This document shows positions 2,898 to 59,916 of a DNA stretch of 64,000 nt, piece after piece (the stretch's first letter is position 1; the number at the start of each line of letters is the position of its first letter). The DNA is taken from IMG/VR virus record IMGVR_UViG_2531839524_000004; one strand, 5' to 3'. A model generated the notes under the pieces. That model searched no databases. It had not been told where the DNA came from and was given only the letters and a program-made list of their open reading frames with translations. Origin of the DNA: a virus (lineage: Duplodnaviria; Heunggongvirae; Uroviricota; Caudoviricetes). The position numbers and the translations under genes were made by a program.

Positions 2898-3054
2898 CCC
2901 GTCTCCTTTATTTTAATTTGCGCAATTGTCGCCTTGTAGTGTACTCCAGCTACGACATTTAATCATTTATGAGAAATGCTGTTATCACATGGCAGACATA
3001 AGGCCATTTTGTTACTATCAAGCCCCTTTTCACTACAAAGAAGTAATGCCTACT

Positions 3055-5088
3055 ATGACCCAAGTCGCGAAGAAAATTCTGGTGACGTGCGCGCTGCCGT
3101 ACGCTAACGGCTCAATCCACCTCGGCCATATGCTGGAGCACATCCAGGCTGATGTCTGGGTTCGTTACCAGCGAATGCGCGGCCACGAGGTTAATTTCAT
3201 CTGTGCCGACGATGCCCACGGTACGCCAATCATGCTGAAAGCACAGCAGCTTGGTATCACACCGGAACAGATGATTGGCGAAATGAGTCAGGAACATCAG
3301 ACTGATTTCGCAGGCTTTAACATCAGCTATGACAACTATCACTCGACGCACAGCGAAGAGAACCGTCAGTTGTCCGAGCTTATCTACACTCGCCTGAAAG
3401 AGAACGGTTTTATTAAAAACCGCACCATCTCTCAGCTGTACGATCCGGAAAAAGGCATGTTCCTGCCGGACCGTTTTGTGAAAGGCACCTGCCCGAAATG
3501 TAAAGCACCGGATCAATACGGCGATAACTGTGAAGTCTGCGGCGCTACTTACAGCCCGACTGAACTGATCGAGCCGAAATCGGTAGTTTCTGGTGCTACG
3601 CCGGTAATGCGTGATTCCGAACACTTCTTCTTTGATCTGCCTTCTTTCAGCGAAATGTTGCAGGCATGGACCCGCAGCGGTGCGTTGCAGGAGCAGGTGG
3701 CAAACAAAATGCAGGAGTGGTTTGAATCTGGCCTGCAACAGTGGGATATCTCCCGCGATGCGCCGTACTTCGGTTTTGAAATTCCGAACGCACCGGGCAA
3801 ATATTTCTACGTCTGGCTGGACGCGCCGATTGGCTACATGGGTTCCTTCAAGAATCTGTGCGACAAACGCGGCGACACTACCAGCTTCGACGAATACTGG
3901 AAGAAAGACTCCACCGCCGAGCTGTACCACTTCATCGGTAAAGATATCGTTTACTTCCACAGCCTGTTCTGGCCTGCCATGCTGGAAGGCAGCAATTTCC
4001 GCAAGCCGACCAACCTGTTTGTTCATGGCTATGTGACGGTGAACGGTGCGAAGATGTCCAAGTCTCGCGGCACCTTTATTAAAGCCAGCACCTGGCTGAA
4101 TCATTTTGACGCTGACAGCCTGCGTTACTACTACACTGCGAAACTCTCTTCGCGCATTGATGATATCGATCTCAACCTGGAGGATTTCGTTCAGCGCGTG
4201 AATGCCGATATCGTGAACAAAGTGGTTAACCTGGCCTCCCGTAATGCAGGCTTTATCAACAAGCGTTTTGACGGCGTGCTGGCAAGCGAACTGGCTGACC
4301 CGCAACTGTACAAAACCTTTACTGATGCTGCTGAAGTGATTGGTGAAGCATGGGAAAGCCGCGAATTTGGTAAAGCGATTCGTGAAATCATGGCGCTGGC
4401 TGATCTGGCTAACCGCTATGTCGATGAACAGGCTCCGTGGGTGGTGGCGAAGCAGGAAGGGCGCGATGCCGATCTGCAGGCGATTTGCTCTATGGGCATT
4501 AACCTGTTCCGCGTGCTGATGACGTACCTGAAACCGGTACTGCCGAAACTGACTGAACGTGCAGAAGCATTCCTGAATACAGAACTGACCTGGGATGGTA
4601 TCCAGCAACCGCTGCTGGGCCATAAAGTGAATCCGTTCAAGGCACTGTATAACCGCATCGACATGAAGCAGGTTGAAGCACTGGTGGAAGCATCCAAAGA
4701 GGAAGTAAAAGCCGCTGCCGCGCCAGTAACTGGCCCACTGGCAGATGATCCGATTCAGGAAACCATCACCTTTGACGACTTCGCCAAAGTTGACCTGCGC
4801 GTGGCTCTGATTGAAAACGCGGAGTTTGTCGAAGGTTCTGACAAACTGCTTCGCCTGACGCTGGATCTCGGTGGCGAAAAACGTAATGTCTTCTCCGGCA
4901 TTCGTTCCGCTTATCCAGATCCACAGGCACTGATTGGTCGTCACACCATTATGGTGGCCAACCTGGCTCCGCGTAAAATGCGCTTCGGTATCTCCGAAGG
5001 CATGGTGATGGCTGCTGGCCCCGGCGGGAAAGATATCTTCCTGTTAAGCCCGGATGCTGGTGCTAAACCAGGCCACCAGGTTAAGTAA
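3055..5088 (+). CDS. metG: methionine--tRNA ligase
   Basis: Class I aaRS motifs ([16 protein letters not shown]) and Zn knuckle CPKC...CEVC; start taken at MTQVAKKIL (3055) rather than the upstream in-frame ATG at 2926. Confidence 0.95.
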
Positions 5089-5771: not shown

Positions 5772-5923
5772 TCGTTATCCTATGATAATGGTTTCACTTT
5801 GAGATTGTTATTTTTCATAGCCAAAGCTGATGTTTGTGGAAGGTGGATTGATAAACGGATGCGTATTTAGGTTATACAAGTGAGAAAATTGATAATATAT
5901 AAACGCGATTTTTATGTGATGGA

Positions 5924-11805: not shown

Positions 11806-12456
11806 TTACGCTTTGAAAGCATCAGCTAAATAATTGTAGAAATCATTTTTAATGAAGCGATATTGCTGAGTACCAGCTTTGGCGCTCCCAGCTCCTTTGA
11901 CTTTTTCAACAAGTCCAAGACGTTCGCAAAGATTGATCAACTGGTTGGCTTGAGTATAGCCAGCGTCCAATTTAATTTCGCACGCTTTTTTAGCTTCATT
12001 CATTAAATCGAAAACAGCGCCATTGGTGAACGTGTCGATCTCGTCGTTAATCATATCGATTAAAGCGAATACACGAGATCCTGACATATCAGCGACGGAA
12101 TAAACACATTTACCAGCTTTAATGGATTTAACCAGATAAACCAGTTTTTCCAGTGAATAACTATTAGTCATTGCATCACGAAAAAATACTTCTGGCGCTT
12201 GTTTGCTTGCTTTAATCGCATAGTAGAAAACAGAGCATAATTTATCGTCTTCTACTGCGTTTACGACGTTGTTGATGAAGTAAGCAAGTTTAGTGGTCGC
12301 AGCTTGCATATTTGCTTTGTCTGCTTTAGTGTGCGTACCATTTTTATAATGTTCGTTATATGTTTGAGTTGCCAGATCTGCTTTTTCGCGCAGTTCATCG
12401 GATACAATGGATGCAGCTTCAATGATGGATTTTTTAGAAATGATAATGTTAGCCAT
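11806..12456 (-). CDS. hypothetical protein (first gene of the AT-rich operon)
   Basis: ORF track, 216 aa; AT-rich relative to neighbours; AT-rich promoter region 12457-12690 upstream. Confidence 0.6.
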   Translation of the reverse strand: MANIIISKKSIIEAASIVSDELREKADLATQTYNEHYKNGTHTKADKANMQAATTKLAYFINNVVNAVEDDKLCSVFYYAIKASKQAPEVFFRDAMTNSYSLEKLVYLVKSIKAGKCVYSVADMSGSRVFALIDMINDEIDTFTNGAVFDLMNEAKKACEIKLDAGYTQANQLINLCERLGLVEKVKGAGSAKAGTQQYRFIKNDFYNYLADAFKA

Positions 12457-12696
12457 GATAATTTTTCCTTATGTAAATTTAAAATTTATTGTCGTTAGCG
12501 TCTTCGCTTTCGACGAGTTCAATTATCGATACGCGAAAAAAGATTGCAAGTGTTTTTTTAAAATTTTTTGCAGGGATGAAAGTCCTAGAAATAAAAGCGA
12601 GATCGTCGAAGGTGTTCCCTAAATAAATAATCGATTCCGGCTTTCGACCTTATATATATTTAGATTATTTGATTTATAGATATAAAGAAGTGATGT

Positions 12697-12726
12697 GAAA
12701 AATAATAACCGGACTTAGCCGGTTAT
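12697..12726 (-). terminator. intrinsic terminator ending the helicase-side minus-strand operon
   Basis: ataaccgg-acttag-ccggttat; on the minus strand followed by a T-run. Confidence 0.6.
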
Positions 12727-12739
12727 TAACCTTATAGAT

Positions 12740-13048
12740 TTATTGAACAGACTCTACAGCCTTACGATTGGTGTCAAATAGCGCATCAACGAACTGTGCC
12801 GATGACTCGCTAGATTCGCAATCCAACATTGCCCGTTCTTCATTTGCCACTTTCTTACACAGTTCCACATTCTCACCTATCGCTTTTCCTGCTTTTACGG
12901 CTGCCGAAAATTGATACATGCAAACTGATACATTCTGAGACGTTGAGCACACGTCATTCATCAGCGACTGAATGACAGGCTTATAGTCCATTGCATTTGC
13001 CGCAACTGAGCAAAGTAAAAATAATGGTGGTAACAATATCGATTTCAT
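12740..13048 (-). CDS. hypothetical secreted/periplasmic protein
   Basis: ORF track, 102 aa; N-terminal signal-peptide-like MKSILLPPLFLLCSVAANA; several cysteines. Confidence 0.55.
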   Translation of the reverse strand: MKSILLPPLFLLCSVAANAMDYKPVIQSLMNDVCSTSQNVSVCMYQFSAAVKAGKAIGENVELCKKVANEERAMLDCESSESSAQFVDALFDTNRKAVESVQ

Positions 13049-13051
13049 AAC

Positions 13052-13576
13052 TCAAAAAGGCAAAATTCGTTCAACCCAATCGAACAAAACAACTATTTTT
13101 CTACCGTTCTCGACACGTAGTGTAACCTGACAAGCATCTGCGCCTGCTGACACCCCCTCAATTTCACGGCCATCCGCCATGTACACCCTTATAGATTTGT
13201 TTGCTTTGTAGGCTTGGTTGCAAATTGCAAAAAAATCGCGGCGTGATGGCCGATTATCGACATAATCAGGGTGAACTGTTAGTCGACCTTTGAAATCGTG
13301 TGCGATACTGTCAACCACACCTGATTCAATTGTACTAATGCGTTCAAGTGGGAGCCTTATACGATTTTCTTTGTCAAAAGGGGCTGGGCAAAGGTCAACT
13401 TTGTTACGAGATGGCATGAGGCCATAAACGTACATGCAAAACGCCTGGCCATCTTCGAGAGTGACCCTTACAGGAATTTGTTCTCTGCGCCAGAACATCA
13501 GTAGTTTTTCAACGTTAGTGTAATCTCGCGGCCAGAGTTCAGCTTGGATACCGTAGGTAATATCTTTGGTTGTCAT
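13052..13576 (-). CDS. hypothetical protein
   Basis: ORF track gives 13052-13654; start set at the internal Met (MTTKDITYG) to avoid overlap with the upstream lipoprotein gene. Confidence 0.45.
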   Translation of the reverse strand: MTTKDITYGIQAELWPRDYTNVEKLLMFWRREQIPVRVTLEDGQAFCMYVYGLMPSRNKVDLCPAPFDKENRIRLPLERISTIESGVVDSIAHDFKGRLTVHPDYVDNRPSRRDFFAICNQAYKANKSIRVYMADGREIEGVSAGADACQVTLRVENGRKIVVLFDWVERILPF

Positions 13577-13580
13577 GTCA

Positions 13581-14003
13581 TCACAGAGTTGTTGGCAGAA
13601 TGTCGATGTCACCAGAATTGCTGGTGAACACCCTGAACGCTTTTGTGTCTCCATTCTTCAGAGTCGTTTCTCGCTCTTGACGAGCGGGGTTTAGAGCACA
13701 TAAACCTGCACCTTCAAGAGATGCACCCACAATTAATTCTCCGGCATTTAAATGGAAAGTCGCTTTTTCGCCTGTAGCCAGTTTTGCGACAGTTTCGCCG
13801 TTGATGAAAATGGAAGCATCACATCCAGCTCCTACAAAACCTGTGTCTCTCATTACCACCAACGTAGCTGGCGCTGCGCTTTGATACTTGAACACTTTGG
13901 CCTGCGGTGCTGGTTTGGCGTCATGGATTGATATTGGGCGTGATTGGCACGCGGTAAGCATCAACACTGGTAACGTTAGTAGAGGGAGAAGCGAGTATTT
14001 CAT
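13581..14003 (-). CDS. putative lipoprotein
   Basis: ORF track (13581-14045); start at MKYSLLPLLTLPVLMLTAC gives a signal peptide ending in lipobox LTAC. Confidence 0.55.
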   Translation of the reverse strand: MKYSLLPLLTLPVLMLTACQSRPISIHDAKPAPQAKVFKYQSAAPATLVVMRDTGFVGAGCDASIFINGETVAKLATGEKATFHLNAGELIVGASLEGAGLCALNPARQERETTLKNGDTKAFRVFTSNSGDIDILPTTL

Positions 14004-14071
14004 GATAGTTTTAGAACAGAAAGTGAACAGTATGGGAGACTTCATCTTTGTCTCCCTAATTGATAGCGTGA

Positions 14072-14350
14072 TTATTTTAATCTGCTTAATAGCGTTTCGA
14101 GATCTTCCTTTGTCATATTAGAGTTCTCATAGATACGCATGATTTTCTCACGAGTCTTAGCGGAAGCCCCGACAGAAGATATAACCTTGTCAAAGTCGGC
14201 CATTGTCAATTGTTCCAGAATGGTATTTATGACTTCAGCCTTAGACATTTTGATATTTTTTTCTTTTAGTTTCACTTGAAACTTTCCAAGTTTGTCATTG
14301 GCCTTATCAGACAATGCTACCTGACAATAAGTTGTTTTCTTTTCGCTCAT
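14072..14350 (-). CDS. hypothetical protein
   Basis: ORF track, 92 aa; starts 3 nt after the helicase stop. Confidence 0.5.
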   Translation of the reverse strand: MSEKKTTYCQVALSDKANDKLGKFQVKLKEKNIKMSKAEVINTILEQLTMADFDKVISSVGASAKTREKIMRIYENSNMTKEDLETLLSRLK

Positions 14351-14352
14351 AA

Positions 14353-15912
14353 CTAATCTCGTTTCAGAACTCCAAAATCGAATGCTCCATCAATAGGCAA
14401 TACACCTTCTGCAAAGCCAGGTGTGGTGTCGATGATGTGTTTTCGCTCATAAGAGTGAGACAACAGGTATTTGTTGCTAATGTCAATGAAATCAGTGATA
14501 AAACACACGTTTGCCTGATTTTTTTTGGCTCGTAAGCCACGACCGACACGCTGCCTCATTTCAACTTCTGCTTTCCCACCACCAGCAAGAATGACCGCAC
14601 CAACGCTTGGCACATCAACACCGACATCCAGAATAGTCGAGCCTATTAAAACATCTATTTCTCCAGACGCTAAACTGTTCAGCTTTGCTTGCCTTGTCGT
14701 CTGGTTAGATTCCCCATAGATGAAATCAACTTTAAGACCTGACTCCTTCATCATCTCCATCAGGATTTGCCCGTGGCGTTTAAGACGAACCAGAGTCATG
14801 CAGTTGAGTGAATGTTGCTTATAAAGCAATGCCTCGCGCACTATGGCCTCGTTACGTCCCAAATTATACACGATCCCCAACTGATAAGCCTTTTGGTAGG
14901 CGGTGCTCATACCAACTCTAAAATTGAGGTGTTTGTTGGCAAGTTCGGCCTTGATTCTGGCCTCGTCTGGCTTGTAGGCAACTTTATGATAAAGGAAGTA
15001 CGGCTTTGCCAGAATGCCTCGATCAATCAGGTACTTTTCTGTGACTTTAATTTCAATTCGCCCGGCCACCGCCATCAGGCGCATGTTGGCTTCCGTCGAA
15101 TCCTTCATGAACGGCGTGGCTGTAAGCGCCAGACGATAGTCTGCGTTCACACATAATCTGGCAATGTCATAGAAATTAGAGCCTGAAGACTCATGCGCTT
15201 CTTCCAGAATAAGCAGAGACACACTTGAAAGGAAGCGTTTCACCAACTCCCGACGTTTGAGGTGGTAGCTCTTTTTATCTGGTGTTGCATCGCGTGGTGG
15301 TTCTTCAAGGAAACTTGCCAGAGTTTGAACTGTAGCGACGTTGATATGTCGTGATACCTGGAACTCACCCGAGCCAATGACTCCAACCTTTTGGTCTTTT
15401 AACCACGGTTCGCCATTTTCGGCGCGGTAGTCGATGGATCTCTGGAAGTTTTCGGCCATTTGAAACATCAGAACAGAGCGGGTTGTTAAAAATAATGTCA
15501 TTCGACCGATACGAGCAGCTGCTTTGCAGGCAACGTTAGATTTCCCGCCACCAGTAGCGATCTGCGCAATCATCATTCCCTCTCGAACCAGTGTTTCCAC
15601 AGTCTGATCCTGATACGCATAATCAGGATTGTATGGGAATGGGTTAACCGCAGGATTTGGTTTACCAAGCGCCGGGGCTTTGTCTTTGCGGATATGAACA
15701 CATTTGATGCCCGCCTTGTTCAAGTTCGCCGCTACAGGCTTGGCAAAGCCAGCAGGGAACGAGTTTTTACTCCAGTTGAACATCGTGCTTGTGCCCTTCC
15801 AGTCGCCAGTCTCGACTTCGTAGCTCAACATCTGTTGCACCATTTGCTTTACCTTGTCATCTGCGCCAGAAATAAGCGCATTAACTGCGTTAGATACAAT
15901 CCGAACAGTCAT
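14353..15912 (-). CDS. superfamily 2 DEAD/DEAH-box helicase
   Basis: Walker A ATGGGKS, Walker B/DEAH-like LILEEAH, motif III LALTATP; 519 aa. Confidence 0.8.
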   Translation of the reverse strand: MTVRIVSNAVNALISGADDKVKQMVQQMLSYEVETGDWKGTSTMFNWSKNSFPAGFAKPVAANLNKAGIKCVHIRKDKAPALGKPNPAVNPFPYNPDYAYQDQTVETLVREGMMIAQIATGGGKSNVACKAAARIGRMTLFLTTRSVLMFQMAENFQRSIDYRAENGEPWLKDQKVGVIGSGEFQVSRHINVATVQTLASFLEEPPRDATPDKKSYHLKRRELVKRFLSSVSLLILEEAHESSGSNFYDIARLCVNADYRLALTATPFMKDSTEANMRLMAVAGRIEIKVTEKYLIDRGILAKPYFLYHKVAYKPDEARIKAELANKHLNFRVGMSTAYQKAYQLGIVYNLGRNEAIVREALLYKQHSLNCMTLVRLKRHGQILMEMMKESGLKVDFIYGESNQTTRQAKLNSLASGEIDVLIGSTILDVGVDVPSVGAVILAGGGKAEVEMRQRVGRGLRAKKNQANVCFITDFIDISNKYLLSHSYERKHIIDTTPGFAEGVLPIDGAFDFGVLKRD

Positions 15913-15976
15913 AAACCTCTTTCCTTAGTGCCTTTTGTATGTTATTTGGCTATTATAATAAGTAAGTGATTACTTA

Positions 15977-16675
15977 GTGGATTGTAGCAATAAAATGGAT
16001 GTAAAAATCACGATTTTGCAGGTTGATGTTGCCAACCTTCGCCCGAATACCTGGAACACCAATTCGGTTGGTGCGCAGAATTTTGAAAAACTGAAAGGTT
16101 CTATCGAAAAATTGGGCTTTTTTAAGCCAATTTTGGCTCGTGAACTTGAAGATGGATTTTTTGAAATCCTCGGCGGCGAACATCGCTGGCGTGCTGCTAT
16201 TGAGCAAGGAATTTCAACGGTTCCGGTGCTTTCTGTGGGCAAAATTAGCGATGTCGTAGCTAAACAGATGTCACTGGTGGACAACGAGCGATACGGTGAA
16301 GACGACCAAATCGCATTGCAACGCTTCATTGAAGAAATTCAGTCAGAACTTGACTATCAACTGTCTGAAATCGCCCCGTATGACGACGAAATCTCGATGG
16401 TTTTAGCAAAAGAGGCGGCAATCGACCTTGAAGCACTGGAGGCGTTGTCTCGTGGTAGTGATGAGCCTGTCGATACCGACAAACGAGAGAAAACCGAACG
16501 TGTGGGTGCGGAACATCAGACCATGCGCTTCAAAGTAACTTTCGATGCGTCAGATCGTGTTGCAGAAACCATAAAAAACATCATCAAAGAGCAGGCTATT
16601 AACACCGGTAATGAAATGGAGAACGCTGGTGAGGCTCTGGTGTGGCTGGTCGACTACTACAAGGAGCGTATGTAA
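15977..16675 (+). CDS. ParB/Srx-fold nuclease-like domain protein 1
   Basis: N-terminal ParB-like core ...FKPILARELEDGFFEILGGEHRWRAA...; acidic C-terminus; start could be 15995. Confidence 0.7.
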   Translation: MDCSNKMDVKITILQVDVANLRPNTWNTNSVGAQNFEKLKGSIEKLGFFKPILARELEDGFFEILGGEHRWRAAIEQGISTVPVLSVGKISDVVAKQMSLVDNERYGEDDQIALQRFIEEIQSELDYQLSEIAPYDDEISMVLAKEAAIDLEALEALSRGSDEPVDTDKREKTERVGAEHQTMRFKVTFDASDRVAETIKNIIKEQAINTGNEMENAGEALVWLVDYYKERM

Positions 16676-19366: not shown

Positions 19367-19999
19367 ATGACGGTCGAAAAAGACGAGGTAAAAACTCGCC
19401 TGACACCAGCGGAGTGGGCCGAAGCTGAAGCCAAATGGACGTCAGGCGAATATACACTCTCAAAGCTGGAGGAAGAGTACGGCATTCGTCGTGAAACACT
19501 CTCCAGACATTTCAAAAAGCGAGGATTAGAGAAAGGCGCGGACTCTGTTGGGAAGATGGTTCGTGAGTCTCTTAAATCTGACGCAGAGCTTCGCGCTAAA
19601 GCCCGTGCGGAAAAGATAGAAGAACGTCGTACACGTTATGACGGCTGGGCGTATGCGTTGGGGCAGATGGTGATGGTCGAAGTCACTACGGCCAAACGTG
19701 AGGGTAAGCCTTTAGGGGCGATTGAGGATTCTCTCAAGAGCTTACAGAGAGCCAGTAATACCCTTGCAAAATGCTTTGAAGTTTCGTCCAAAGCATTGGG
19801 CATGGATCATGCGGAAAATGACGAGGAAGAAATTCCGAACCTGGTATTTGGTGAGCTTACGCCTTCCCAGGTGGCGAAATTACGTCAGGAAGACGACGAG
19901 CCTGAAATCATCGATGACGAATTGCTTGAGACGTTGGAAGAAGAAGCTCTAAGCGAATTTGATGCGACAGATGATGGAAGTGAAGGGGAGGACGAATAA
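19367..19999 (+). CDS. terminase small subunit (putative)
   Basis: 210 aa directly upstream of the large terminase; N-terminal HTH-like region and acidic tail; call by position. Confidence 0.6.
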   Translation: MTVEKDEVKTRLTPAEWAEAEAKWTSGEYTLSKLEEEYGIRRETLSRHFKKRGLEKGADSVGKMVRESLKSDAELRAKARAEKIEERRTRYDGWAYALGQMVMVEVTTAKREGKPLGAIEDSLKSLQRASNTLAKCFEVSSKALGMDHAENDEEEIPNLVFGELTPSQVAKLRQEDDEPEIIDDELLETLEEEALSEFDATDDGSEGEDE

Positions 20000-21255
20000 T
20001 GGCAATCCCGTCCTCGCTCAGTCTTGTGCAACTGCATTCTGGACAGATGAAAGTCTTCCAGTCTCCGCATCGATTTAAAGTTGTTTGTGCTGGTCGACGC
20101 TGGGGAAAATCCCGGTTGTCGATCTCCACTATTATTCGTGCGGCGGCAAAGGAAAAAAAGCAAAGGGTCTGGTATGTCGCTCCTACTTACCAGATGGCTC
20201 GCCAGATTTTGTGGGACGATCTACAGGAAGTTCTGCCTCGTAAGTGGGTTAGGAAAAAGAACGACACCACGATGACAATCGTGTTGAAGAACGGTTCGGA
20301 GATCGCCCTCAAAGGTGCTGATAAGCCTGACACTCTGCGCGGCGTAGCGTTGCATTTTGTAGTGCTTGATGAATTTCAGGATATGAAGGCTGACACCTGG
20401 TACAAGGTGTTACGACCTACTCTTTCATCGACACGCGGCGGTGCACTGATCATTGGTACGCCAAAAGGTTTCTCGGAATTTCACAAACTGTGGACTATAG
20501 GCCAGAACGTAGAGCTGCAAAGAAAGGGACAGTGGAAGAGCTGGCAGTTTGTAACTGCCGATTCTCCGTTTGTGCCTACGGCGGAAATTGAAGCTGCTAA
20601 GAACGATATGGACCCGAAATCGTTCGCTCAGGAGTACCTGGCGAGCTTTGAGAACATGTCCGGGCGCGTTTACTACCCGTTCGATCGTAACGTGCATGTA
20701 AAACCGCTTCAGTTCAACCCTCGGTTGCCTATATGGGTAGGGCAGGACTTCAACATTGACCCGATGTCTTCAGTAATTTTGCAACCTCAGCCAAATGGTG
20801 AGCTATGGGCAATTGATGAATTGGTGCTCTTTTCCTCTAACACGGCAGAGGTTTGTGATGAGCTTGAGAGACGCTTCTGGCGCTGGAAATCACAGATAAC
20901 GGTATTTCCAGATCCGGCAGGTGCTTATCGCCAACATGCTCGCGGGGAGTCTGACGTCGACATATTCAAAGAGAAGGGATTCTTACGTGTCGATTATTCG
21001 AAAAAGCCCCCGCCAATTGCGGATCGTGTTAATGCTGTTAACCGAATGCTGATGACCGCATCTGGAGATATCCGGTTGTATATCGATCCGAAGTGCAAGC
21101 ATTTGATTGATTCACTGGAAAAAGTCATCTACAAGCCTGGAACACGAGATATGGATAAGACAGGTGGCATTGAGCATAGTGCAGACGCATTGGGCTATCC
21201 AGTACATCGTAGGTATCCAGTCAAAAACCGTGTTATTCTTGGTGGTTCTCGATAG
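19999..21255 (+). CDS. terminase large subunit
   Basis: Walker A VCAGRRWGKS, Walker B HFVVLDEF, C-terminal nuclease-like acidic residues; 418 aa. Confidence 0.9.
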   Translation: MAIPSSLSLVQLHSGQMKVFQSPHRFKVVCAGRRWGKSRLSISTIIRAAAKEKKQRVWYVAPTYQMARQILWDDLQEVLPRKWVRKKNDTTMTIVLKNGSEIALKGADKPDTLRGVALHFVVLDEFQDMKADTWYKVLRPTLSSTRGGALIIGTPKGFSEFHKLWTIGQNVELQRKGQWKSWQFVTADSPFVPTAEIEAAKNDMDPKSFAQEYLASFENMSGRVYYPFDRNVHVKPLQFNPRLPIWVGQDFNIDPMSSVILQPQPNGELWAIDELVLFSSNTAEVCDELERRFWRWKSQITVFPDPAGAYRQHARGESDVDIFKEKGFLRVDYSKKPPPIADRVNAVNRMLMTASGDIRLYIDPKCKHLIDSLEKVIYKPGTRDMDKTGGIEHSADALGYPVHRRYPVKNRVILGGSR

Positions 21256-21281
21256 GTAAGTAATTATCTAAGGTTATTCAA

Positions 21282-22856
21282 ATGGAATTGAACGACAAAC
21301 AAATTAAGGATCTGGTGGCGCGACGCCACCCGGAATACGAAAAGAAAAAAGAACATTGGGACTTCCTCGCCAGCACTTACGCTGGCGGGCGTGGTTGGTT
21401 TACAGACAATATCTTTCGTTACTTTAAAGAGGGAGATCAGGAGTTTAAGGAGCGAGTTGAGCGTGCTTATCGCTTCAACCACACTCGTGAGGTGGTAAAC
21501 CTCATCAACAAATATCTCTTTAAAGAAGACATTCATAGAAATATCGAAGAGGCACCAGAGCAGATCCGCAATTTCTGGAAACGTGCGACTCGCCAGAATG
21601 CCTCTATTGACTCATTTATGGCCGCTATTGATTTGCAGTCGTCTATTTACGGTCGCATATGGGTTGTTGTCGATAGCACGATGAGTGGTGATGTTGAGTC
21701 AGTAGCTGACGAGAAAAAGAAAGATGCTCGCGCCTACGCCTACTGGATTTCACCTCAGCAAATGCTGGATGTGGCATGGGACGACGACGGGAATATGTTG
21801 TGGGCGTTAATTGTGGAAGTCGCTCGTGATGACGCAGATCCTTTTACTTCTACAGGTCAGGAATACCAACGTTATCGTCTGTGGACACAAAACGAGTGGT
21901 ATCTGTTCCGTGAGGAAGTGAAGAAGGGCGCTGGTGGAGCAGGTCGCCGTCAGGCAAAAGTTATTTTAGAGGATAGCGGTGAGCATAATCTCGGCGTAGT
22001 TCCTGTGTTTCCTGTTGATTGTATTGGAGAAAGTGAATCACCGTATTTCAGCCCATCGTTGATCGATGATATCGCTTATCTTGATCGTGCGGTTGCAAAC
22101 TATCTGTCAAACCTTGATGCCATTATTCAGGATCAGACATTTAGCCAGTTGGCTATACCGGTACAGTCGCTTTTACCTGGTGATGAAAACCACACTAAAG
22201 TGCTTGAAATGGGCACAAAGCGAGTCTTCACCTACGATTCTGAAGGTGGAAACCAGCCGTTTTATCTGTCACCAGACCCGAAACAAGCTCAGATGATCAT
22301 CACTACGATTAAGACGGTGATTAACGAAATCTACCATTCAGTTGGTGTAGCTGGTGAGCGAACGAAGCAGGACAACGCACAGGGAATCGATAATTCATCT
22401 GGTGCCGCAAAAATGTATGACTTCCAGCGTGTAAATAGCTTGCTTGTCACAAAAGCAGAGCGTCTGGAAAGGGCTGAACGCCAAATCATGCTACTGGTTG
22501 CGAAATGGATGGGGGTAGATCTGGACGAAGACCACTCTTTAATTGCGTATCCAGAAAGTTTCGATATTCGTGGCCTTACTGATGAATTTTCTGTTGCCGA
22601 GAAACTGTCATTACTTCAGGCACCGGACTCTGTACGTCGTCACCAGATGGAAATGCTTATTGAGAAGATTTTCCCGAACATTACTGAGGCGATGAAAAAG
22701 GAATTTGATAAAGATCTCTTGAATTTTCCTCCAAAAAATGATCTAAATACCCTTGAAAATAAGTCAGTACTTACTTATGATCGTGGTGCAGCCCAAGAAA
22801 GCGGGCAAGATCAACCCCGAGGGAATGGGGACTCATCTACTCAAGAGAACGAGTGA
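21282..22856 (+). CDS. portal protein (putative)
   Basis: 524 aa immediately after the large terminase; call by size and synteny. Confidence 0.7.
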   Translation: MELNDKQIKDLVARRHPEYEKKKEHWDFLASTYAGGRGWFTDNIFRYFKEGDQEFKERVERAYRFNHTREVVNLINKYLFKEDIHRNIEEAPEQIRNFWKRATRQNASIDSFMAAIDLQSSIYGRIWVVVDSTMSGDVESVADEKKKDARAYAYWISPQQMLDVAWDDDGNMLWALIVEVARDDADPFTSTGQEYQRYRLWTQNEWYLFREEVKKGAGGAGRRQAKVILEDSGEHNLGVVPVFPVDCIGESESPYFSPSLIDDIAYLDRAVANYLSNLDAIIQDQTFSQLAIPVQSLLPGDENHTKVLEMGTKRVFTYDSEGGNQPFYLSPDPKQAQMIITTIKTVINEIYHSVGVAGERTKQDNAQGIDNSSGAAKMYDFQRVNSLLVTKAERLERAERQIMLLVAKWMGVDLDEDHSLIAYPESFDIRGLTDEFSVAEKLSLLQAPDSVRRHQMEMLIEKIFPNITEAMKKEFDKDLLNFPPKNDLNTLENKSVLTYDRGAAQESGQDQPRGNGDSSTQENE

Positions 22857-27051: not shown

Positions 27052-27396
27052 ATGAATATTTCATGGCAAACAGAAATTGCGATCTACCGCTTTGGCGCAA
27101 AGAACGTATACGGCGAGGCGCAATTACAATTCGTCAGGAAGACGAATGTCGGCGTGGTTAAGTTCGAACAGAGTAATGAGAAATCGTCAGTTCGTGCTGA
27201 TAGCTCTGGTAGTCGTGGTAAGGCGAGTCTGGAGCTGTTTGATGCTGTGTTAGTTGTCCCTTTAGAAGCGGCTGTACAACTTGATGATGTGCTGATCCTT
27301 GAAGGTCAAAAATTAAAGGTGTCCAGTGTTCATCGCCGCTGGGGGCTACGAGGAAGACCTGGGCATCTTGAAGTGGGGGCGAATATATGGGTCTGA
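27052..27396 (+). CDS. hypothetical head-tail joining protein
   Basis: ORF track (26956-27396); start moved to MNISWQ after RBS GGGAGAGAG. Confidence 0.4.
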   Translation: MNISWQTEIAIYRFGAKNVYGEAQLQFVRKTNVGVVKFEQSNEKSSVRADSSGSRGKASLELFDAVLVVPLEAAVQLDDVLILEGQKLKVSSVHRRWGLRGRPGHLEVGANIWV

Positions 27397-27860
27397 AATA
27401 CGATGCGCATCAGTTCAAACGTGCGGGGAATAGACTCAATAACAGCCAGAAAGCATTTAAGCGATATCTTATTCGGGACATGGAAAAGCTGGCGCGTTTG
27501 GTTGAGCGTCTCAGCCGTGCAATGGCCCCGCTGGAAACCGGATCTCTGGAGACAGCCATCTTTGCCAGGGTGATTAAAGAAGGTTATTCAGGGCTGCGCA
27601 TTGAGCTTTCTGTGTCTGGAGCAAAACCACGTCAGGGGCATCCGGGCGTAGAAGTCGGTGACTATGCTAAGTACATGGAGCTGGGTAAATACCGACTCGG
27701 TTATCTTTCTCGAATGAAGAACGTGACAAACCCACCAATTGCCGGTGTTAAACCTCGTGTTGGGCCACACTTTCTGGAAAGAGCGGTGGAAATTAGCGAG
27801 AAGCAGTTCTCAGAAGCGATTCTTGAGGCTGCCAGAAAAGCCGGTTTTACGAGAGGTTAA
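27387..27860 (+). CDS. hypothetical head-tail joining protein
   Basis: ORF track, 157 aa. Confidence 0.4.
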   Translation: MGLKYDAHQFKRAGNRLNNSQKAFKRYLIRDMEKLARLVERLSRAMAPLETGSLETAIFARVIKEGYSGLRIELSVSGAKPRQGHPGVEVGDYAKYMELGKYRLGYLSRMKNVTNPPIAGVKPRVGPHFLERAVEISEKQFSEAILEAARKAGFTRG

Positions 27861-27861
27861 T

Positions 27862-28245
27862 GTGTTTATTGAAGCGTTTGCAAGTTTGATGCAGAAGGCA
27901 AAGATTGGCACGGTCGGGGCTGACATTTTCTGTCACTACTTGCCTGCCAATGTGAAATCTGGCGTCCTGCTTATTAACCCAAATACCGGTATCAGCATCG
28001 ATCATGAGCTACAGGGCTTTTACCACGAATCATTCACAATAATTGTGCGTGGTTCGTCAATTACTACGACGGTTGAGAAAGCCAATAAAATCATTGAGAT
28101 GTTTCCAGTAGAGGAAACGGAATCTGGTGGTGTTTATTTTCGACTGGTACGACCGATGGCGATGCCAATCATTTATCCCAAAAATGATGGAGCATTAATA
28201 GAAGCAGGCATTCCTGTTGAATTTGCTGGCTATTTATTGAATTAA
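27862..28245 (+). CDS. hypothetical tail completion protein
   Basis: In-frame GTG right after the upstream stop (VFIEAFASLMQ...); the ATG at 27739 would overlap the preceding gene. Confidence 0.4.
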   Translation: MFIEAFASLMQKAKIGTVGADIFCHYLPANVKSGVLLINPNTGISIDHELQGFYHESFTIIVRGSSITTTVEKANKIIEMFPVEETESGGVYFRLVRPMAMPIIYPKNDGALIEAGIPVEFAGYLLN

Positions 28246-28319
28246 GTTAATCGGTAAGTATATACTTATTGTTAGCGCAATGAATGCGTAGAATTAACGG
28301 AAAAAGGAGTTTTCCATCA

Positions 28320-29066
28320 ATGTCTAATACCCATGTAAAAAACATCAAACTTGGTGCCTGTAAGGTGTCGTTTGGTGGTGTGGATTTGGGTTACACCAAA
28401 GGTGGGGTTCAGGTTGAAGTAGCCACTGAAACGCTGAAAGTCACCGTCGATCAGTTGGGGCAGACCGTAATTTCCGAATTAGTTCAGGGGCGCAACATTA
28501 CCATCACCGCGCCTCTGGCTGAGTCTGTACTCCAAAACATGGTTGACCTGATGCCTGGTTCTACTCTGAGCGAAGATGACAACTCTGTCACGATCACATC
28601 TGCACAGGGCGTTAATCTGATTGATGTGGCGAAGGAGCTGGTTCTGACTCCGCAGGACACCACCGACTATGTGTTGACCATCCCGAAAGCGGCAACCGCG
28701 GGCAACTTCACTATGACCTACCAGTCTGATGATGTTCGTGTGTTCTCTGTTCAGTTCAGCGCATACCCGGATGATGAAGGCGTTCTGGGCAAAATGAGCG
28801 GTCCTAAACCGGTAAAAACTGTGTCGATCTCACCGGAATCTCCAACCGTAAAAGCTGGAGAAACTGTGCAACTGACAGCCGAAATCACTCCAGCTGATGC
28901 CGCAGACAAAACCGGTGTTTGGGAATCCGAAGACCAGGAAAAGGCCACGGTAGATCAAACGGGTCTGGTACGTGGTGTGGCGCAGGGTTCTACAAATATC
29001 TCCTTCACCAGCAATAGCGGTGGTAAGAAGGCAACTAAGTCAGTAACGATTAACTCCGCAGGTTAA
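28320..29066 (+). CDS. major tail protein with C-terminal Ig-like domain (putative)
   Basis: Start at MSNTHVKN after RBS AAAAAGGAG; C-terminal about 85 aa repeat of the Big_2-type domain; precedes chaperone and tape measure genes. Confidence 0.65.
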   Translation: MSNTHVKNIKLGACKVSFGGVDLGYTKGGVQVEVATETLKVTVDQLGQTVISELVQGRNITITAPLAESVLQNMVDLMPGSTLSEDDNSVTITSAQGVNLIDVAKELVLTPQDTTDYVLTIPKAATAGNFTMTYQSDDVRVFSVQFSAYPDDEGVLGKMSGPKPVKTVSISPESPTVKAGETVQLTAEITPADAADKTGVWESEDQEKATVDQTGLVRGVAQGSTNISFTSNSGGKKATKSVTINSAG

Positions 29067-29079
29067 TCAGTAATTAAGC

Positions 29080-29106
29080 AGAGGCTCAGGATGAGCCTCT
29101 CTTTTA
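29080..29106 (+). terminator. hairpin after the major tail gene
   Basis: agaggctca-gga-tgagcctct followed by CTTTTAAAA. Confidence 0.5.
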
Positions 29107-29121
29107 AAAGGATTTTAACCA

Positions 29122-29439
29122 ATGACCAAATTACTCGATCTCGATTCCATTCTGCCTCCGAAGAAAAGCATCAAATTTGGCGGTCAGGAATATCCCATCG
29201 TTGAAATGACGGTAGGTCTGTTCGTTTCCATCAAGCAGATGGAAGGCAAAGATCTCATGAACATGTCTCCTGTTGAGCAAGTGACAGCTTATGCAGATCT
29301 GGTTCGTAAGGTTATCCCTTCAGTACCTGACGAAGTTCTTGAAAAACTGACTGTTCCGCAACTCCAGCAGATCTTCACCTTCGCTATGGAAGTGATTGAT
29401 GAAGAAAACGAAAAAGCGGCTGGCGAAGGGGCAAAGTAA
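29122..29439 (+). CDS. tail assembly chaperone (G-like, putative)
   Basis: 105 aa, acidic, immediately upstream of the tape measure gene. Confidence 0.55.
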   Translation: MTKLLDLDSILPPKKSIKFGGQEYPIVEMTVGLFVSIKQMEGKDLMNMSPVEQVTAYADLVRKVIPSVPDEVLEKLTVPQLQQIFTFAMEVIDEENEKAAGEGAK

Positions 29440-29789
29440 TTTCCCGCGATGAATCCGGGACAAGGACCGTCTCAATAGATCTCGGATTCTATTTCAGTCG
29501 TGTAGTTGCTCACTACGCCGTGTCGCCATTAGAGCTACTGAACGTTCCTCTCACGATGTTCTGGATGCTCAGTCGCAATATAGACCGTCTGCGTGCGGAA
29601 GAGGATGTCCGCAACTTACAAGTCGCTCGTGCGTCCCAGGCGGATGGCGAGGCTGTGAAGGCGTTCATGGAGGGTTTGCAACTCAGGATTGGAAGACCAG
29701 TCGTAACAGATAAAGTCTACGATCCAAGCCAGGATAAGGCAGACCCTGACGCCAAAGAGCAACTGATGCAAATATTTGGCAGAGGATGA
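29403..29789 (+). other. possible -1 frameshift extension of the tail chaperone (GT-like)
   Basis: The -1 frame is open from 29403 to 29789 and bridges chaperone and tape measure genes; A-run GAAAAAG at 29410-29416 near the chaperone 3' end could be slippery; alternatively an independent GTG-initiated ORF from 29520. Confidence 0.3.
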
Positions 29790-32700
29790 CAAGGGAATGT
29801 CACAAAACGTAGAGTTTATCCTGTCGCTGGAAGACAAACAGTTTACAGCGTCAATCGATCGTGCGGGGAAACTGCTTACTCGATTTGGTGAGCAGGTAAC
29901 AAAGCCTGCTCAAAAAATCCAAACCTTTGAACGCTCTTTGGGTTCGGTCGCCCGTATCATTGGCGTTCTGGAAAGCAAGCTCGATTCTACGGCAGATAAA
30001 CTACAGGATGTAGCTGCCTGTTTTGAGCTTGCTTCAGATGCTACGCGTAAAATGCGTGGCAACATCACCAGCCTCAATTCTGGTCTTAAAGCCCTGATTG
30101 AGCGCGTCGATACGACAACTTCTTCAGTAGATAAACTCACCGCGTCATTACGTAAAGTGCAATCAGAGCTAAATGATTTCTCTGATTGGGCGCCCTATGC
30201 AAGCAAAAGCGCAAGCCGCTTTGGTACGGAGGTCAAAGAAGCCTCTGCGTCCGTGAGTGGCATGAATACGCGCCTTAATACCACGACGAAGCGACTCAGT
30301 AATTGGGGTGTCACAACGAGTCAGGCTGCCGAGGGACTGAAAAAGGTTCGTGAGCAGATGGACGAAGTTATCGGACGTCAGCAACTGATTAGCAAGCCGG
30401 TACGCGTTCGTACATCTGGAAGTGGTGATGGTGGTAGCGGGCGGCGTAGCGGCGCTTCTGGCCATAGCGGTAAAAGTAACGAAGGAGGTATGTTCTCTGG
30501 CCTGCGTGGCAACATTTTCCTGCTTGGCGAGATCGGAGATGCAGCCAGAACGGTTACTGACATCATGTTTGGGTGGCAGAAGCCTATTGTTGAAGCTGCG
30601 GCCGAAATGGAACGTATGCGGGTGATGCTTCGAGGGTTGAATAAGGAGAAGTCCAACCCGGGCCAGGCTGCCGCTGATGATATGAAGTACATCGTAGACA
30701 TGGCTCAAAATGCGCCGTTCGCGATGCAGGCGTTAACAGACTCCTTCGTGAAGTTTCGTTCTGCTGGCTTAGATCCAACCGATGGTTCTCTGAAGGCGCT
30801 GGTGGACTCCGTTGCTCGTTTTGGTGGTGATAGTGAGCTGTTGAAACGTGCGGCTGTGGCCGTTCAGCAGATGTCCGGTAAGGGCGTTGTGTCAATGGAA
30901 GAGCTACGTCAGCAATTAGGTGAAGCAGTTCCTAACGCGATGCAGGCAATGGCAGACGCCGCAGGCATCACTATGGGGGAACTGACTAAAGCCGTTGCCA
31001 GCGGTACGGTTGAGGCAAAACAGGCGTTGTCTCTGATGTTTGTTGGTCTGCGTGCGGAGAATGAGAACGCAGCGAAAGACATGATGCAAACCTACACAGG
31101 TGCGCTGGCGCAACTTCAGACGTCATTCACGTTATTTGCTGATCGGGTTGGTCAGGCCGGATATCTGGATTCTCTATCGAAGGGGATGAAAGAACTGGCT
31201 TCAATCATGAATAGCGCCGAAGGGATTTCGTTTGCCAATTCTGTAGGTTCGGGGTTAACAACGGCAATCGATGGGTTGCGTCAGCTTGCTCAATGGTTAG
31301 CAAAGAACCAAGAGCTGGTAATTAATCTCGGTAAGGTCGTGGCCGCGATGGTTGCGTTCAAACTGATGCGAGCAGGGATCATGGGGGTAGTTGGCGCTGG
31401 GAGCCAGATGGTTAGCACCTTTGCCACGATGGCGACCGCCATACAGACTCCATTTAACCTCGGCGCTACAGCAGTAACTCGATTCAATCGTGCGGCACGT
31501 ATGGGGCTGGCTCCGATCCCCTCTCTTATTTTCGCCATCCGTGGGGCGATTACGGGGCTTAAAGGCGCTTTTGCTGGATTAACGGCGTTCATTGCAGCAA
31601 ACCCTATAGGGGCAGCATTTACAGTTGCCACTGTAGCTGTTGCTGGCCTAATCACGTACATGACCATGCTCCGCAGCGAAACTTCAAAGGTCGTTGACGA
31701 GATTAGGAAAATACCAGAAGCGATGACAGCGGCCAAACGTGCACAAATGGCCGACCGCGCAGAAAAGCTCGAAAAGCAGATTCTTGCTGATCAACGAGCA
31801 TTAAAAACTGGTGAGGGTGTTAATTACGTATCTAACTCTGCCGGTGTTATTACTCACAAAGAGTCGAAGGCTGACATCGAAGCACGCCTGAAAAAAAATC
31901 AGGAGGAGTATCAAAAGATAACCGGCACGATAGCTCTTGGTGACGGCGCTGTAGCAAAGCGTTTGGCTAAAGAGGCTGCCGAATCTCAGATTGAGAAAAT
32001 TCGAGCGGAAAACCAGATTTTCGCGGCAACATTCGTGAAAGCCCGGCAAGAGGCTCTGGATAAGATCCAGAAAATCAATGATGACGGTTCACTTTCAGAT
32101 GACGAAAAGAACAAGCTATTGGCACCGTTACGTGAAACGGTAAACAAAAGCTATCTGGAGCCTGCGCAAAAACTGGTTGATTCACTTTCTTCTCGTAAGA
32201 ATGCGACCGAGAAGCAAATTGCGACTCTTAATGATCAGCTTGAAAAAGCCAAAAAGGATGGAAATACCGAGCAGATCCAGAAACTGCAAGGCAGTATTCG
32301 TGGTTATCAGGAGCATTTGGAAGCCGTTGCTCAGGAGCTGACTCAGGCAGAGTTCGAGAGAGATAACGCGGCCAAAACTGGTAAGGGCGTAATGTCAAAC
32401 CAGGGGACTGTTCTTGGGTTAGGTACAACTGATAAAGCTGCTCAGAAGGCGCTGGCGCAATATATGCGAAACCAGATGGATTCTGCGACTTATCAACGTA
32501 CTTTGCCTGACGGCACTCCGATGATGGACTTCGAAGGTAAGCCGATTATTGGGCCTAAACAACTCAAGACGCAGCTTAATTTGCAGAAAGCATCCAGCGC
32601 CAGCTCTCTGGAGAAAATGAGCGATGAAGAGCGTGCCGCAGCCATTGCTGCACTGACTAAAGCTCGTGAACAGGATGCCGCAGCCGCCGAGAAAGCAGCC

Positions 32701-45645: not shown

Positions 45646-45848
45646 TTTAGGGATTATTTATATGGCTGTGTGGTTTAAAAATGCGATTTCACAGCCGCAA
45701 TCATAGGGATATATTAGTGAGTTACTAGATGCGAATATGAACAACCGTTAAACGGTATATGTATAGGTAGGTAAGTATATACCTACAATTAAAAGGAGAA
45801 GTGTGATATAAATCCGCCATCCCGATTTGACTTTTCACGGAGGAAAAC

Positions 45849-46172
45849 ATGTCGAACGAGATGGCGGGCGTTACAACAGAGCAAGTTGAGCGTATTGCCG
45901 CGATCGTTGCTCGGGAGGTTGTTGGCAAATTAGGCAAAGAGCTACGTGAAGAAATTGGCCAGGAGGTCAATGATCAGCTGAAAACCTACTTTGGTGATAT
46001 GACCCCGGCGCAACATAGTATTCAACACTCCAACCTGGACAAGCTCCTTAACCGGTTAGATTCCATCTCCAGTGGGTTCTTTGGCGGCATTGTTTCTAAA
46101 ATAACGTCGTTCATTATTACTGCACTGCTTTTGGGGTTAGCCGCGTATGGCGTAAAAAATGGACTGCAATAA
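45849..46172 (+). CDS. hypothetical protein with C-terminal transmembrane helix (possible holin)
   Basis: 107 aa; single hydrophobic segment ITSFIITALLLGLAAYGV near the C-terminus; first gene of the apparent lysis cassette. Confidence 0.35.
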   Translation: MSNEMAGVTTEQVERIAAIVAREVVGKLGKELREEIGQEVNDQLKTYFGDMTPAQHSIQHSNLDKLLNRLDSISSGFFGGIVSKITSFIITALLLGLAAYGVKNGLQ

Positions 46173-46185
46173 CAGGAGATCAAGG

Positions 46186-46878
46186 ATGAAGACTCCGAGA
46201 GGCATTCGTAATAATAACCCCGGTAATCTTGATAAAGGATCACCGTGGCAAGGTCTGGTTGCGAATCCAGATGAACCGCGCTTTTGCACGTTTAAAGACC
46301 CTGTTTGGGGGATTCGTGCGTTGGCGGTGACTCTAATTACCTACCACGACAAACGTCGCGCAAAAGACGGCTCAAGTATCGATACCATTCGTGAAGTTAT
46401 TGAACGTTGGGCACCGCCGAATGAAAACAACACTGACGCCTACATTAATGAGGTGTCTAAAGCCGTTGGTGTAACCGCAGACATGATCATCGATCTGCAT
46501 GATTACGACATTCTTCGACCTTTGGTTGAGGCAATCATTCGCCATGAGAATGGGCGAGGTCCGCTAAAAACGCTGAACACCTGGTATGCGGCAGAAGTTA
46601 TTGAGGAAGGTCTGCGTCGAGCTGGCGTCGTTAAGCCGGTGAAAACCGTGAAGGCTGTTCCTGTAACTAAAGAAACAGCAGGCGCAACTGTCACAGCAGG
46701 TATTGGTCTGGCGCAGCTGGCCGATGTTATGCCGCAGGTTTCCGCTGCTATGGATAAAGCACAAGGTCATATCTCTAGCGGGGATACAGTACGCATCATC
46801 TTCGGTATTGCCACTATTGTTGTGGCTGGATTTATCGCCTGGTCGCAGGTAAGAAGACACCAGAAAGGGATGGTCTAA
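46186..46878 (+). CDS. hypothetical lysis-cassette protein, possible cell-wall hydrolase with C-terminal membrane anchor
   Basis: ORF track (46159-46878); start at MKTPRGIRNNNPGNL after RBS AGGAG; enzymatic family not recognised; C-terminal hydrophobic helix. Confidence 0.35.
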   Translation: MKTPRGIRNNNPGNLDKGSPWQGLVANPDEPRFCTFKDPVWGIRALAVTLITYHDKRRAKDGSSIDTIREVIERWAPPNENNTDAYINEVSKAVGVTADMIIDLHDYDILRPLVEAIIRHENGRGPLKTLNTWYAAEVIEEGLRRAGVVKPVKTVKAVPVTKETAGATVTAGIGLAQLADVMPQVSAAMDKAQGHISSGDTVRIIFGIATIVVAGFIAWSQVRRHQKGMV

Positions 46879-46879
46879 T

Positions 46880-47282: not shown

Positions 47283-47456
47283 TAAAAGCGGAATTTTCTA
47301 ACATAAAATTTGCATATTATTAGAGCACAAGGTAGATTTGAAGCATGGATGTCAAGTAAATCATACCTTGTTTTAATAAATCGACGCATACTCGTAGCCT
47401 CTAAACCGACAAGGTCGCCGCTATGACATAAAGTTATTACCGGCTAAGGTGGAAAC

Positions 47457-59820: not shown

Positions 59821-59825
59821 ATTTA

Positions 59826-59912: not shown

Positions 59913-59916
59913 AATT

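Follow-up and report, generated by a model that had tools for sequence, protein, structure and literature searches.

A conserved FljA-family gene between exchangeable slots for exported cargo in a phage-plasmid module of the SSU5 type

We analysed a 64,000-nucleotide stretch of viral DNA (IMG/VR record IMGVR_UViG_2531839524_000004, hereafter the window), and in it a minus-strand module of five genes that begins with a superfamily 2 (SF2) helicase and closes at an intrinsic terminator. Judged by its matches and gene content, the window is an Escherichia coli phage-plasmid of the SSU5/pHCM2/pMT1 type: positions 12600–16000 share 99.9% identity with non-mobilizable E. coli plasmids of ~110 kb (p788309_2, for example), 99.3% with an entry filed under the name Escherichia phage CMS-2020a and 79% with Salmonella phage SSU5, and ParB-like, terminase, portal and tail genes neighbour the module. 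The conserved element of the locus is a cytoplasmic protein of 174 amino acids (aa) from the FljA family, which an earlier note on this DNA passed over in favour of the envelope proteins. Our overall reading, held with slightly better than even confidence, is that of a conserved module, transcribed in the carrier state in the relative Cyrano, whose FljA-like protein is a translational regulator that more likely does not act on flagellin alone, and whose envelope-directed cargo can be swapped.

The 174-aa protein matched the Pfam profile PF03614 (Flag1_repress, "repressor of phase-1 flagellin") with 282.4 bits against a cut-off of 24 (E 1.5e-84), and the match spans profile positions 1–170 of 170. 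BLASTP aligned it to Salmonella FljA at 34% identity over 175 residues (E 2e-37), and its identity to the genuine FljA proteins retrieved was 34–36% over the full length. The canonical set comprised a Salmonella hin-fljB-fljA segment, a pBSSB1-like linear plasmid and an IncF plasmid (L015, L016 and L017), which were fetched from plasmid records with a bait sequence; all comparisons used the genuine sequences retrieved in this way. Shared between the 174-aa protein and bona fide FljA are an N-terminal motif, D-I-x-Y-G-x-x-A-E-x-W-P-R-D-Y, and a C-terminal one, F-D-W-V-x-R-I. The earlier statement that nothing in these sequences identifies a known family is thus contradicted by full-length PF03614 membership, by the SSU5 GenBank record, which already names the homologue "putative repressor of phase 1 flagellin" (the pHCM2 annotation is the same), and by the lipoprotein, a member of PHROG 890. 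No defence or exclusion model in PADLOC, Pfam or NCBIfam was matched by the 174-aa protein. The ratio of nonsynonymous to synonymous substitution rates (dN/dS) of the gene was 0.08–0.14. Identity within the phage-plasmid FljA-like clades ranges over 33–82%, against 68–83% in the canonical, flagellin-linked clade.

A scan of genome contigs built on the FljA-like alignment gave just six loci, and Salmonella fljA was not among them because the search patterns were too specific. In SSU5 (L001), the FljA-like gene at 3042–3488 is annotated as 148 aa, and tblastn aligns residues 5–174 of the window protein there, so the annotated start is probably too far downstream. FljA-like genes 55–67% identical to the one studied here were also observed on metagenome-assembled contigs labelled Bacillota (L009 and L010) and in a Gemella record (P0079); these are probably mis-binned or contaminating contigs from enterobacterial phage-plasmids.

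The predicted model of the 174-aa protein contains two Hfq/Sm-like modules in one chain, with the N-terminal helix and the five-stranded, strongly bent beta-sheet of that fold, and it superposes on Hfq. A match to Hfq at residues 120–162 was also seen, below the family thresholds (19.6 against 27 bits for PF17209, and 13 against 61.7 bits for TIGR02383). The predicted tandem, two-module architecture is weakly supported by the sequence. FljA and FljA(z66) block translation of fliC mRNA (PMC2652032), an action that the modelled Sm-like fold fits.

To place the gene among its relatives, synteny was compared across SSU5, Yersinia pestis pMT1, Cyrano (= pLF82) and three Klebsiella lineages. The order helicase, 92-aa gene, slot A, FljA-like gene, slot B, terminator and 216-aa gene was kept throughout, with FljA-like proteins 78% identical to the window protein in Cyrano and 36% identical in one of the Klebsiella lineages. 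Records in PLSDB gave the same picture: the counts for the FljA-like protein and the helicase match across the six largest enterobacterial host genera, as in Klebsiella (345/346), Escherichia (229/228), Enterobacter (92/92), Yersinia (62/62) and Cronobacter (10/10). While the helicase was found in 1002 plasmid records, ~820 match both genes, and 826 of the 835 records that match the FljA-like protein cover at least 80% of it. For comparison with these ~820 elements, 421 records contain the lipoprotein and 259 contain the 102-aa gene.

The two slots differ in content at the same sites among SSU5, pMT1, Cyrano and the three Klebsiella elements, as expected of morons. In slot A, the window shares its lipoprotein with SSU5 and pMT1; one Klebsiella lineage has a lipoprotein 27% identical to it, encoded on the opposite strand, another has three genes including one for a 118-aa signal-peptide protein, and Cyrano has genes for a 199-aa protein and an unrelated 266-aa lipoprotein. 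Slot B holds the 102-aa gene, a gene for a distantly similar, Cys-rich secreted protein of 100 aa, or nothing. The 102-aa gene is joined exactly between the stop codon of the FljA-like gene and the conserved ATCTATAAGG, and the cargo genes of the window are packed into the module with no clear promoter of their own. Given this synteny, and the matched record counts of the FljA-like gene against the variable slots, the FljA-like protein is the conserved core, and the lipoprotein and the 102-aa protein are exchangeable cargo on either side.

The core gene also varies in an allelic fashion. Two Klebsiella elements (L012 and L013) have flanking backbone proteins that are 96–99% identical, yet their FljA-like proteins are 73% identical, which indicates, from the alignments, that FljA-like alleles have been exchanged between lineages together with the cargo slots. 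Synonymous divergence (dS) between the two is saturated in the FljA-like gene and ~0.19 in its backbone neighbours. Comparing the window with L002, we likewise observed an FljA-like gene much more divergent than the adjoining backbone genes.

Both cargo proteins carry conserved export signals, and the envelope targeting of two module products, along with the lipobox LTAC and the signal peptide named in the earlier note, was borne out in their homologues. In the slot A lipoprotein, the lipidated residue of the L-T-A-C lipobox is Cys33 of the 154-aa open reading frame (ORF). A signal peptide ends in this lipobox, which follows the bacterial lipoprotein pattern [LVI][ASTVI][GAS]C; 13 homologues and the distant (lambdoid) relatives in phages all keep it as L-x-[AG]-C, and two further cysteines are likewise invariant among the homologues. 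Most homologues start at the equivalent of Met15 (140 aa), a Shine-Dalgarno AGGGAG lies 6 nucleotides (nt) before Met1 in this element, and either start gives the same mature lipoprotein. Under the Lol rule, the residue after the Cys governs the outer-membrane sorting of lipoproteins; since this residue is Gln here, and Gln or Ser rather than Asp in the family, the lipoprotein would be expected in the outer membrane. In a poor predicted model, the mature protein of ~121 aa looks like a beta-sandwich in which a pair of Cys is conserved, and the fold search gave no informative structural match. There was no match in Pfam, NCBIfam or PADLOC at the thresholds used; the DUF2846 profile (PF11008) scored 17.8 bits on the window protein, below its gathering threshold of 34.3, and 16.1 bits on P0122.

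The PHROG 890 family recurs in temperate phages, with 58 phage records (25 Vibrio, 18 Pseudomonas and 9 Escherichia among them). In the E. coli lambdoid phages mEp390 and CharmingMan, as in Pseudomonas phage vB_Pae_CF183a, the lipoprotein homologue occupies an insertion site between tail genes K and I, beside J; in Vibrio phage Her it follows a cI-like repressor gene directly and in the same orientation. Tail-tip and repressor-adjacent sites are typical of accessory or exclusion genes expressed from prophages. By analogy, a role of the lipoprotein in lysogenic conversion or exclusion is plausible.

The slot B gene encodes a 19-residue signal peptide (MKSILLPPLFLLCSVAANA) with the MK start, hydrophobic core and cleavage motif (ANA, VSA or ASA across the family) of Sec export. 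In relatives with 65–88% identity its frame, length and AxA motif are kept while its sequence varies. The mature product has 83 aa, with cysteines at residues 34, 43, 64 and 77; three of them never vary, and the other is absent from a single homologue. Such conserved cysteines in an exported protein fit a disulfide-bonded periplasmic protein, as far as sequence can tell. The family is very narrow: it comprises 12 clusters, is restricted to this set of phage-plasmids, and yielded just 5 relatives when 1.84 billion representative proteins were searched with a profile. No match was found in Pfam, NCBIfam, PADLOC or the Protein Data Bank (PDB). Annotation of the gene is uneven. The NCBI annotation of the 99.9%-identical plasmid begins at an internal Met, giving 83 aa and dropping the signal peptide, and most of the listed records from Klebsiella and Salmonella leave the gene unannotated (features "none"). 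Its loci in the sequences compared include L012 4526–4831 and L003 4141–4392. In Klebsiella pY9645-105, the unannotated 102-aa gene starts 4 nt after the stop codon of the FljA-like gene.

Expression of the module was evaluated in Cyrano through the published RNA sequencing (RNA-seq) of its host, E. coli LF82 (S1 Table of PMC9928086). The values are log2(FPKM+5), with FPKM standing for fragments per kilobase per million mapped reads, and we compared overnight culture in lysogeny broth (LB) with the other four conditions (B1, B6, MB1 and MB6), the MB columns being read as bacteria inside macrophages. Because few virions of Cyrano are produced (PMC9928086), the RNA signal comes from carrier cells. 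Module genes were transcribed in this carrier state, with most structural genes near the floor (Table 1), and the published analysis places the 92-aa homologue, CYRAN_117, 12-fold above background in the lysogen (PMC9928086). The module had been described earlier as an early operon, which these data do not support; at least for Cyrano, "early lytic operon" is the wrong description.

Table 1. Transcript levels of Cyrano genes in E. coli LF82, as log2(FPKM+5)
Gene	Overnight LB	Other four conditions
FljA-like, CYRAN_114	4.2	6.9–8.1
Helicase	5.0–5.9	7.2–8.4
92-aa gene	6.3–7.2	8.6–9.9
Cargo lipoprotein	4.7–5.0	7.9–9.4
Putative repressor	6.4–6.8	7.4–10.4
Gene after terminator, CYRAN_113	2.3–2.8	2.8–5.7
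Most structural genes	~3–4	~3–4

Family membership, the predicted fold, the division into core and cargo, the signals for export, the terminator and a relative's transcription in the carrier state are directly supported; RNA binding, the target and the action of the cargo are inferred. By analogy with FljA, the 174-aa protein would bind the leader of a specific mRNA and block its translation. The target would be present in every host, either as one of the element's own mRNAs or as a host mRNA that is conserved, and we consider such a target more likely than host flagellin alone. The lipoprotein would be exported to the outer membrane and the 102-aa protein to the periplasm, and together the cargo would most likely change the envelope of the carrier cell, as lysogenic conversion and possibly as phage exclusion. 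Several points weigh against this account. The mechanism is built on homology (34% identity) and a predicted fold, no RNA target was found for the 174-aa protein, and nothing was found that identifies the function of either cargo protein. The internal duplication gave an in-register but weak signal with hhalign (E 0.0012, probability 19.5%) and was not significant by BLASTP (E 0.26). The expression data come from Cyrano, where the FljA-like protein is 78% identical, the genes are arranged differently and the upstream region is particular to that element, and the motility of LF82 was measured in other laboratories under conditions unmatched to the RNA-seq. Finally, we know of no FljA homologue with a tested function that does anything other than repress flagellin, which makes flagellin the default functional transfer.

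Taken at face value, that transfer means that the 174-aa protein binds the host fliC leader and stops flagellin synthesis in carriers or after induction; carriers would lose their flagella and thereby exclude flagellum-dependent phages, hide the ligand of Toll-like receptor 5 (TLR5) or save resources. Full-length family membership and the terminal motifs shared with bona fide FljA speak for it, as do the availability of the E. coli fliC leader in the host and transcription of the Cyrano homologue in carriers. Moreover, a motile E. coli lost its motility when given a pBSSB1 derivative in which fljA was present and the flagellin gene disrupted, so that FljA can act across species without its partner flagellin (PMC2652032). 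We still consider flagellin silencing rather unlikely. All three canonical fljA copies retrieved lie directly downstream of a flagellin gene, while the FljA-like gene lies behind one in none of the seven phage-plasmid loci, and there is no flagellin homologue in the window or in the complete 99.9%-identical plasmid of 111 kb. Klebsiella and Y. pestis are non-motile, non-flagellate hosts, yet in their elements the gene is intact, under purifying selection and matched in count to the helicase (345 and 62 records). The phage-plasmid clades are more diverse than the flagellin-linked one, and wild-type LF82 swims in soft agar (PMC8956108) while it transcribes the homologue from Cyrano at ~5.5 copies (PMC9928086). 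Each of these observations argues that flagellin is not the target, or not the sole one; in addition, identity to functional FljA is just 32–37%. Searching the window and the complete relative plasmid with the E. coli fliC promoter, leader and start returned only 12-mers at chance level (E 0.48–0.84). One of them, the fliC-leader 12-mer ATAGGATAACGA from the Shine-Dalgarno region, stands at 5772–5783 on the minus strand before an ATG and a 20-codon ORF, and with E 0.48 it was judged a chance match. None of the translation-initiation regions was distinctive when ranked by resemblance to fliC, with the 216-aa gene 4th of 148. A broader alternative, which we offer tentatively and hold to be somewhat doubtful, is that the FljA family is at home in phage-plasmids as a tandem-Sm core regulator, and that FljA of Salmonella and E. 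coli is a domesticated offshoot. The target of the protein would then be an mRNA of phage, plasmid or host origin (in the last case a conserved one), and the protein might form a second layer of immunity or maintenance with exchangeable alleles. The greater depth of the phage-plasmid clades, the presence of the gene wherever the helicase is, whatever the motility of the host, and its mosaic divergence from the flanking backbone would all fit.

The cargo invites a different emphasis, that of the earlier note, in which the lipoprotein, the 102-aa protein or both would act in superinfection exclusion or receptor masking. They would then work in the manner of T5 Llp or lambdoid Cor. Both proteins have conserved export signals and both are accessory, occupying slots that hold other exported proteins in other lineages, and the Cyrano lysogen transcribes the gene for its own, unrelated cargo lipoprotein. 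The positions of the homologues in E. coli and Pseudomonas siphophages, and behind the repressor gene of phage Her, lend circumstantial support to exclusion for the lipoprotein only; the 102-aa family, confined as it is to this phage-plasmid group, offers no independent context. Serum resistance, envelope stress or adhesion would fit the same facts, no experiment on any family member was found, and neither a similarity to Pfam, NCBIfam or PADLOC families nor an informative structural match speaks for exclusion. We regard exclusion as possible, though on balance doubtful. A more radical objection would be that the small ORFs are chance frames or decayed remnants and that the helicase is the sole real gene. 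Inconsistent annotation might suggest as much, the 102-aa gene being called as 83 aa or left uncalled in many records. However, the frames are kept across lineages with saturated synonymous sites, dN/dS was 0.05–0.14 wherever dS was unsaturated, as under purifying selection, each of the four ORFs has a full-length PHROG family, and the Cyrano homologues are transcribed. Conservation refutes this objection, and we give it next to no credence.

Coordinates of the module and its surroundings are collected in Table 2. The gene order given in the earlier note (helicase, 92-aa gene, lipoprotein, 174-aa gene and 102-aa gene, all on the minus strand) stands, each ORF lying where it had been placed. 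The gaps between the genes, from the helicase to the 102-aa gene, are 2, 26, 4 and 3 nt, consistent with co-transcription, and the five genes of this element would thus be expected to share one transcript.

Table 2. Features of the module and its flanks in the window
Feature	Position	Strand	Basis or remark
SF2 helicase, 519 aa, first module gene, conserved backbone	14353..15912	-	ResIII/DEAD/Helicase_C, PHROG 16
92-aa backbone protein	14072..14350	-	PHROG 1466 over full length
Cargo lipoprotein, slot A, 154 aa (140 aa from alternative start 14003)	13581..14045	-	Lipobox LTAC 13947-13958; PHROG 890
FljA-family protein, 174 aa, locus core	13052..13576	-	PF03614; predicted tandem Sm/Hfq-like
Secreted 102-aa cargo protein, slot B	12740..13048	-	Signal peptide encoded 12992-13048; mature 83 aa, four Cys
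Intrinsic terminator closing the module	12697..12728	-	Hairpin and U-tract, conserved in seven lineages
Candidate promoter/operator upstream of helicase	15952..15975	-	-10 TATAAT 15957-15952, palindrome AAGTAAtcacTTACTT 15975-15960
Conserved non-coding blocks, then promoter TTGCAA-16-GATAAT of 216-aa gene	12522..12700	-	Alignment of lineages
216-aa gene, next after terminator	11806-12456	-	Neighbouring gene

The terminator that the earlier note placed after the 102-aa gene was upheld. Its 10-bp, G+C-rich stem (12728–12703) is followed by TTTTT, and the hairpin folds with -12.6 kcal/mol (z = -4.35 against shuffled sequence). Across the seven lineages that keep it, 17 stem pairs were predicted, one of them maintained through change on both sides. 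Together with the U-tract and this conservation, a drop in Cyrano RNA, from log2 6.9–8.1 in the FljA-like gene to 2.8–5.7 in the next, gives the full pattern of an intrinsic terminator, and because of that drop the conserved terminator appears to be functional.

Beyond the terminator, before the promoter of the 216-aa gene, lie (at 12560–12700 on the minus strand) the blocks TATATAAGG..., ATTTATTTAGGSAACACCTTC and TTATTTCTARGACTTT, which were aligned between the window and its equivalents in L001, L002 and L011–L014. All three are invariant even in a Klebsiella lineage whose flanking proteins are 36–49% identical, and their sequence is unique within the window. The blocks had no Rfam match, and RNAalifold over the conserved intergenic region supported the terminator alone and no other RNA structure. 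They may represent a protein-binding site or a small transcript.

At the other end of the module, the helicase matched ResIII, DEAD and Helicase_C in Pfam, and its Cyrano homologue is annotated as UvsW helicase. Inspection of the sequence upstream of the helicase shows a perfect -10 hexamer, TATAAT, abutting the palindrome AAGTAAtcacTTACTT, a combination that looks like an operator-controlled promoter of the module and is at this stage a candidate. A consensus promoter scan did not flag this TATAAT, and it has no good -35. The 92-aa protein was conserved in every lineage examined at 34–85% identity and had no significant match in Pfam or the PDB; our impression is that its N-terminal pattern resembles a ribbon-helix-helix. 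Between the 92-aa and lipoprotein genes, a G+C-rich hairpin was observed in SSU5 (GGCGCCttgaGGCGCC, ~4000–4057 of L001) and in pMT1 (GGCGTCgcaaGACGCC, ~3515–3573 of L011), and the window is without it. In Cyrano, expression of the 92-aa gene is far above that of the gene that follows. Termination or attenuation after the 92-aa gene may be common to these elements.

Elsewhere in the window and its closest relative, several further features were observed. The 99.9%-identical plasmid p788309_2 (CP091393.1, L018) carries ISEcp1-blaCTX-M-15 and a type I restriction-modification system at 19797–22190 and 27144–33182. Judged by the offset of coordinates, the restriction-modification genes adjoin the window at its low end, where the megablast alignment begins only at position 1324. 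The tail-fibre region (43300–47300) is 82–94% identical to p788309_2, against 96–99% for the rest of the window, which suggests an independent exchange of host-range genes. The plus strand carries a cluster of four tRNA genes (Asn, Tyr, Thr and Ser) at 59746–60296.

Parts of the module are already annotated in public records. What we did not find in the literature searched is an orphan FljA clade that matches the helicase in count whatever the motility of the host, the carrier-state transcription of its Cyrano homologue or the predicted tandem Sm-like architecture, and no paper in it links fljA with SSU5, phage-plasmids or pMT1. Phage-plasmids of the SSU5/pHCM2/pMT1 type are common in clinical Enterobacterales, with ~820 PLSDB records. 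If flagellin silencing were true, carriers in several genera would change in motility, H-antigen expression, TLR5 signalling and susceptibility to phages that depend on flagella. To our knowledge, FljA has for decades been known solely as a repressor in flagellar phase variation; if the target is another, FljA would be one specialised branch within a broader set of phage regulators that bind RNA and are built from Sm-like domains, and an unstudied layer of control in phage-plasmids would be exposed. Slots A and B, as loading sites for envelope cargo, offer a practical hunting ground for lysogenic-conversion and exclusion genes.

Among known systems, T5 Llp, Cor of phi80, N15 and HK022, and lambda Bor are lipoprotein cargo genes of prophages. 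The slot A lipoprotein resembles them as a small accessory lipoprotein of a temperate element with homologues at typical moron positions; it differs in that no curated-family similarity was detected for it, Llp and Cor being compared by description only. Phage T4 encodes RegA, a translational repressor that binds mRNA leaders, and if the target of the 174-aa protein is the element's own mRNA, the likeness would be that of a phage protein shutting off translation at leaders, though in an unrelated family and fold. Hfq assembles as a hexameric ring with one Sm module per subunit, whereas two modules are predicted per chain here. The closest comparison is with FljA of the Salmonella fljBA operon and FljA(z66) of pBSSB1, with which the window protein shares full-length PF03614 membership, the motifs at both ends and its size (174 aa here, 174–179 aa there); like FljA(z66), it is carried on a mobile element. 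In contrast to both, its clade never lies beside a flagellin gene, and no invertase switch was seen in the phage-plasmid loci examined. Unlike FljA, it belongs to the core of a phage-plasmid lineage, some of whose elements reside in non-motile hosts.

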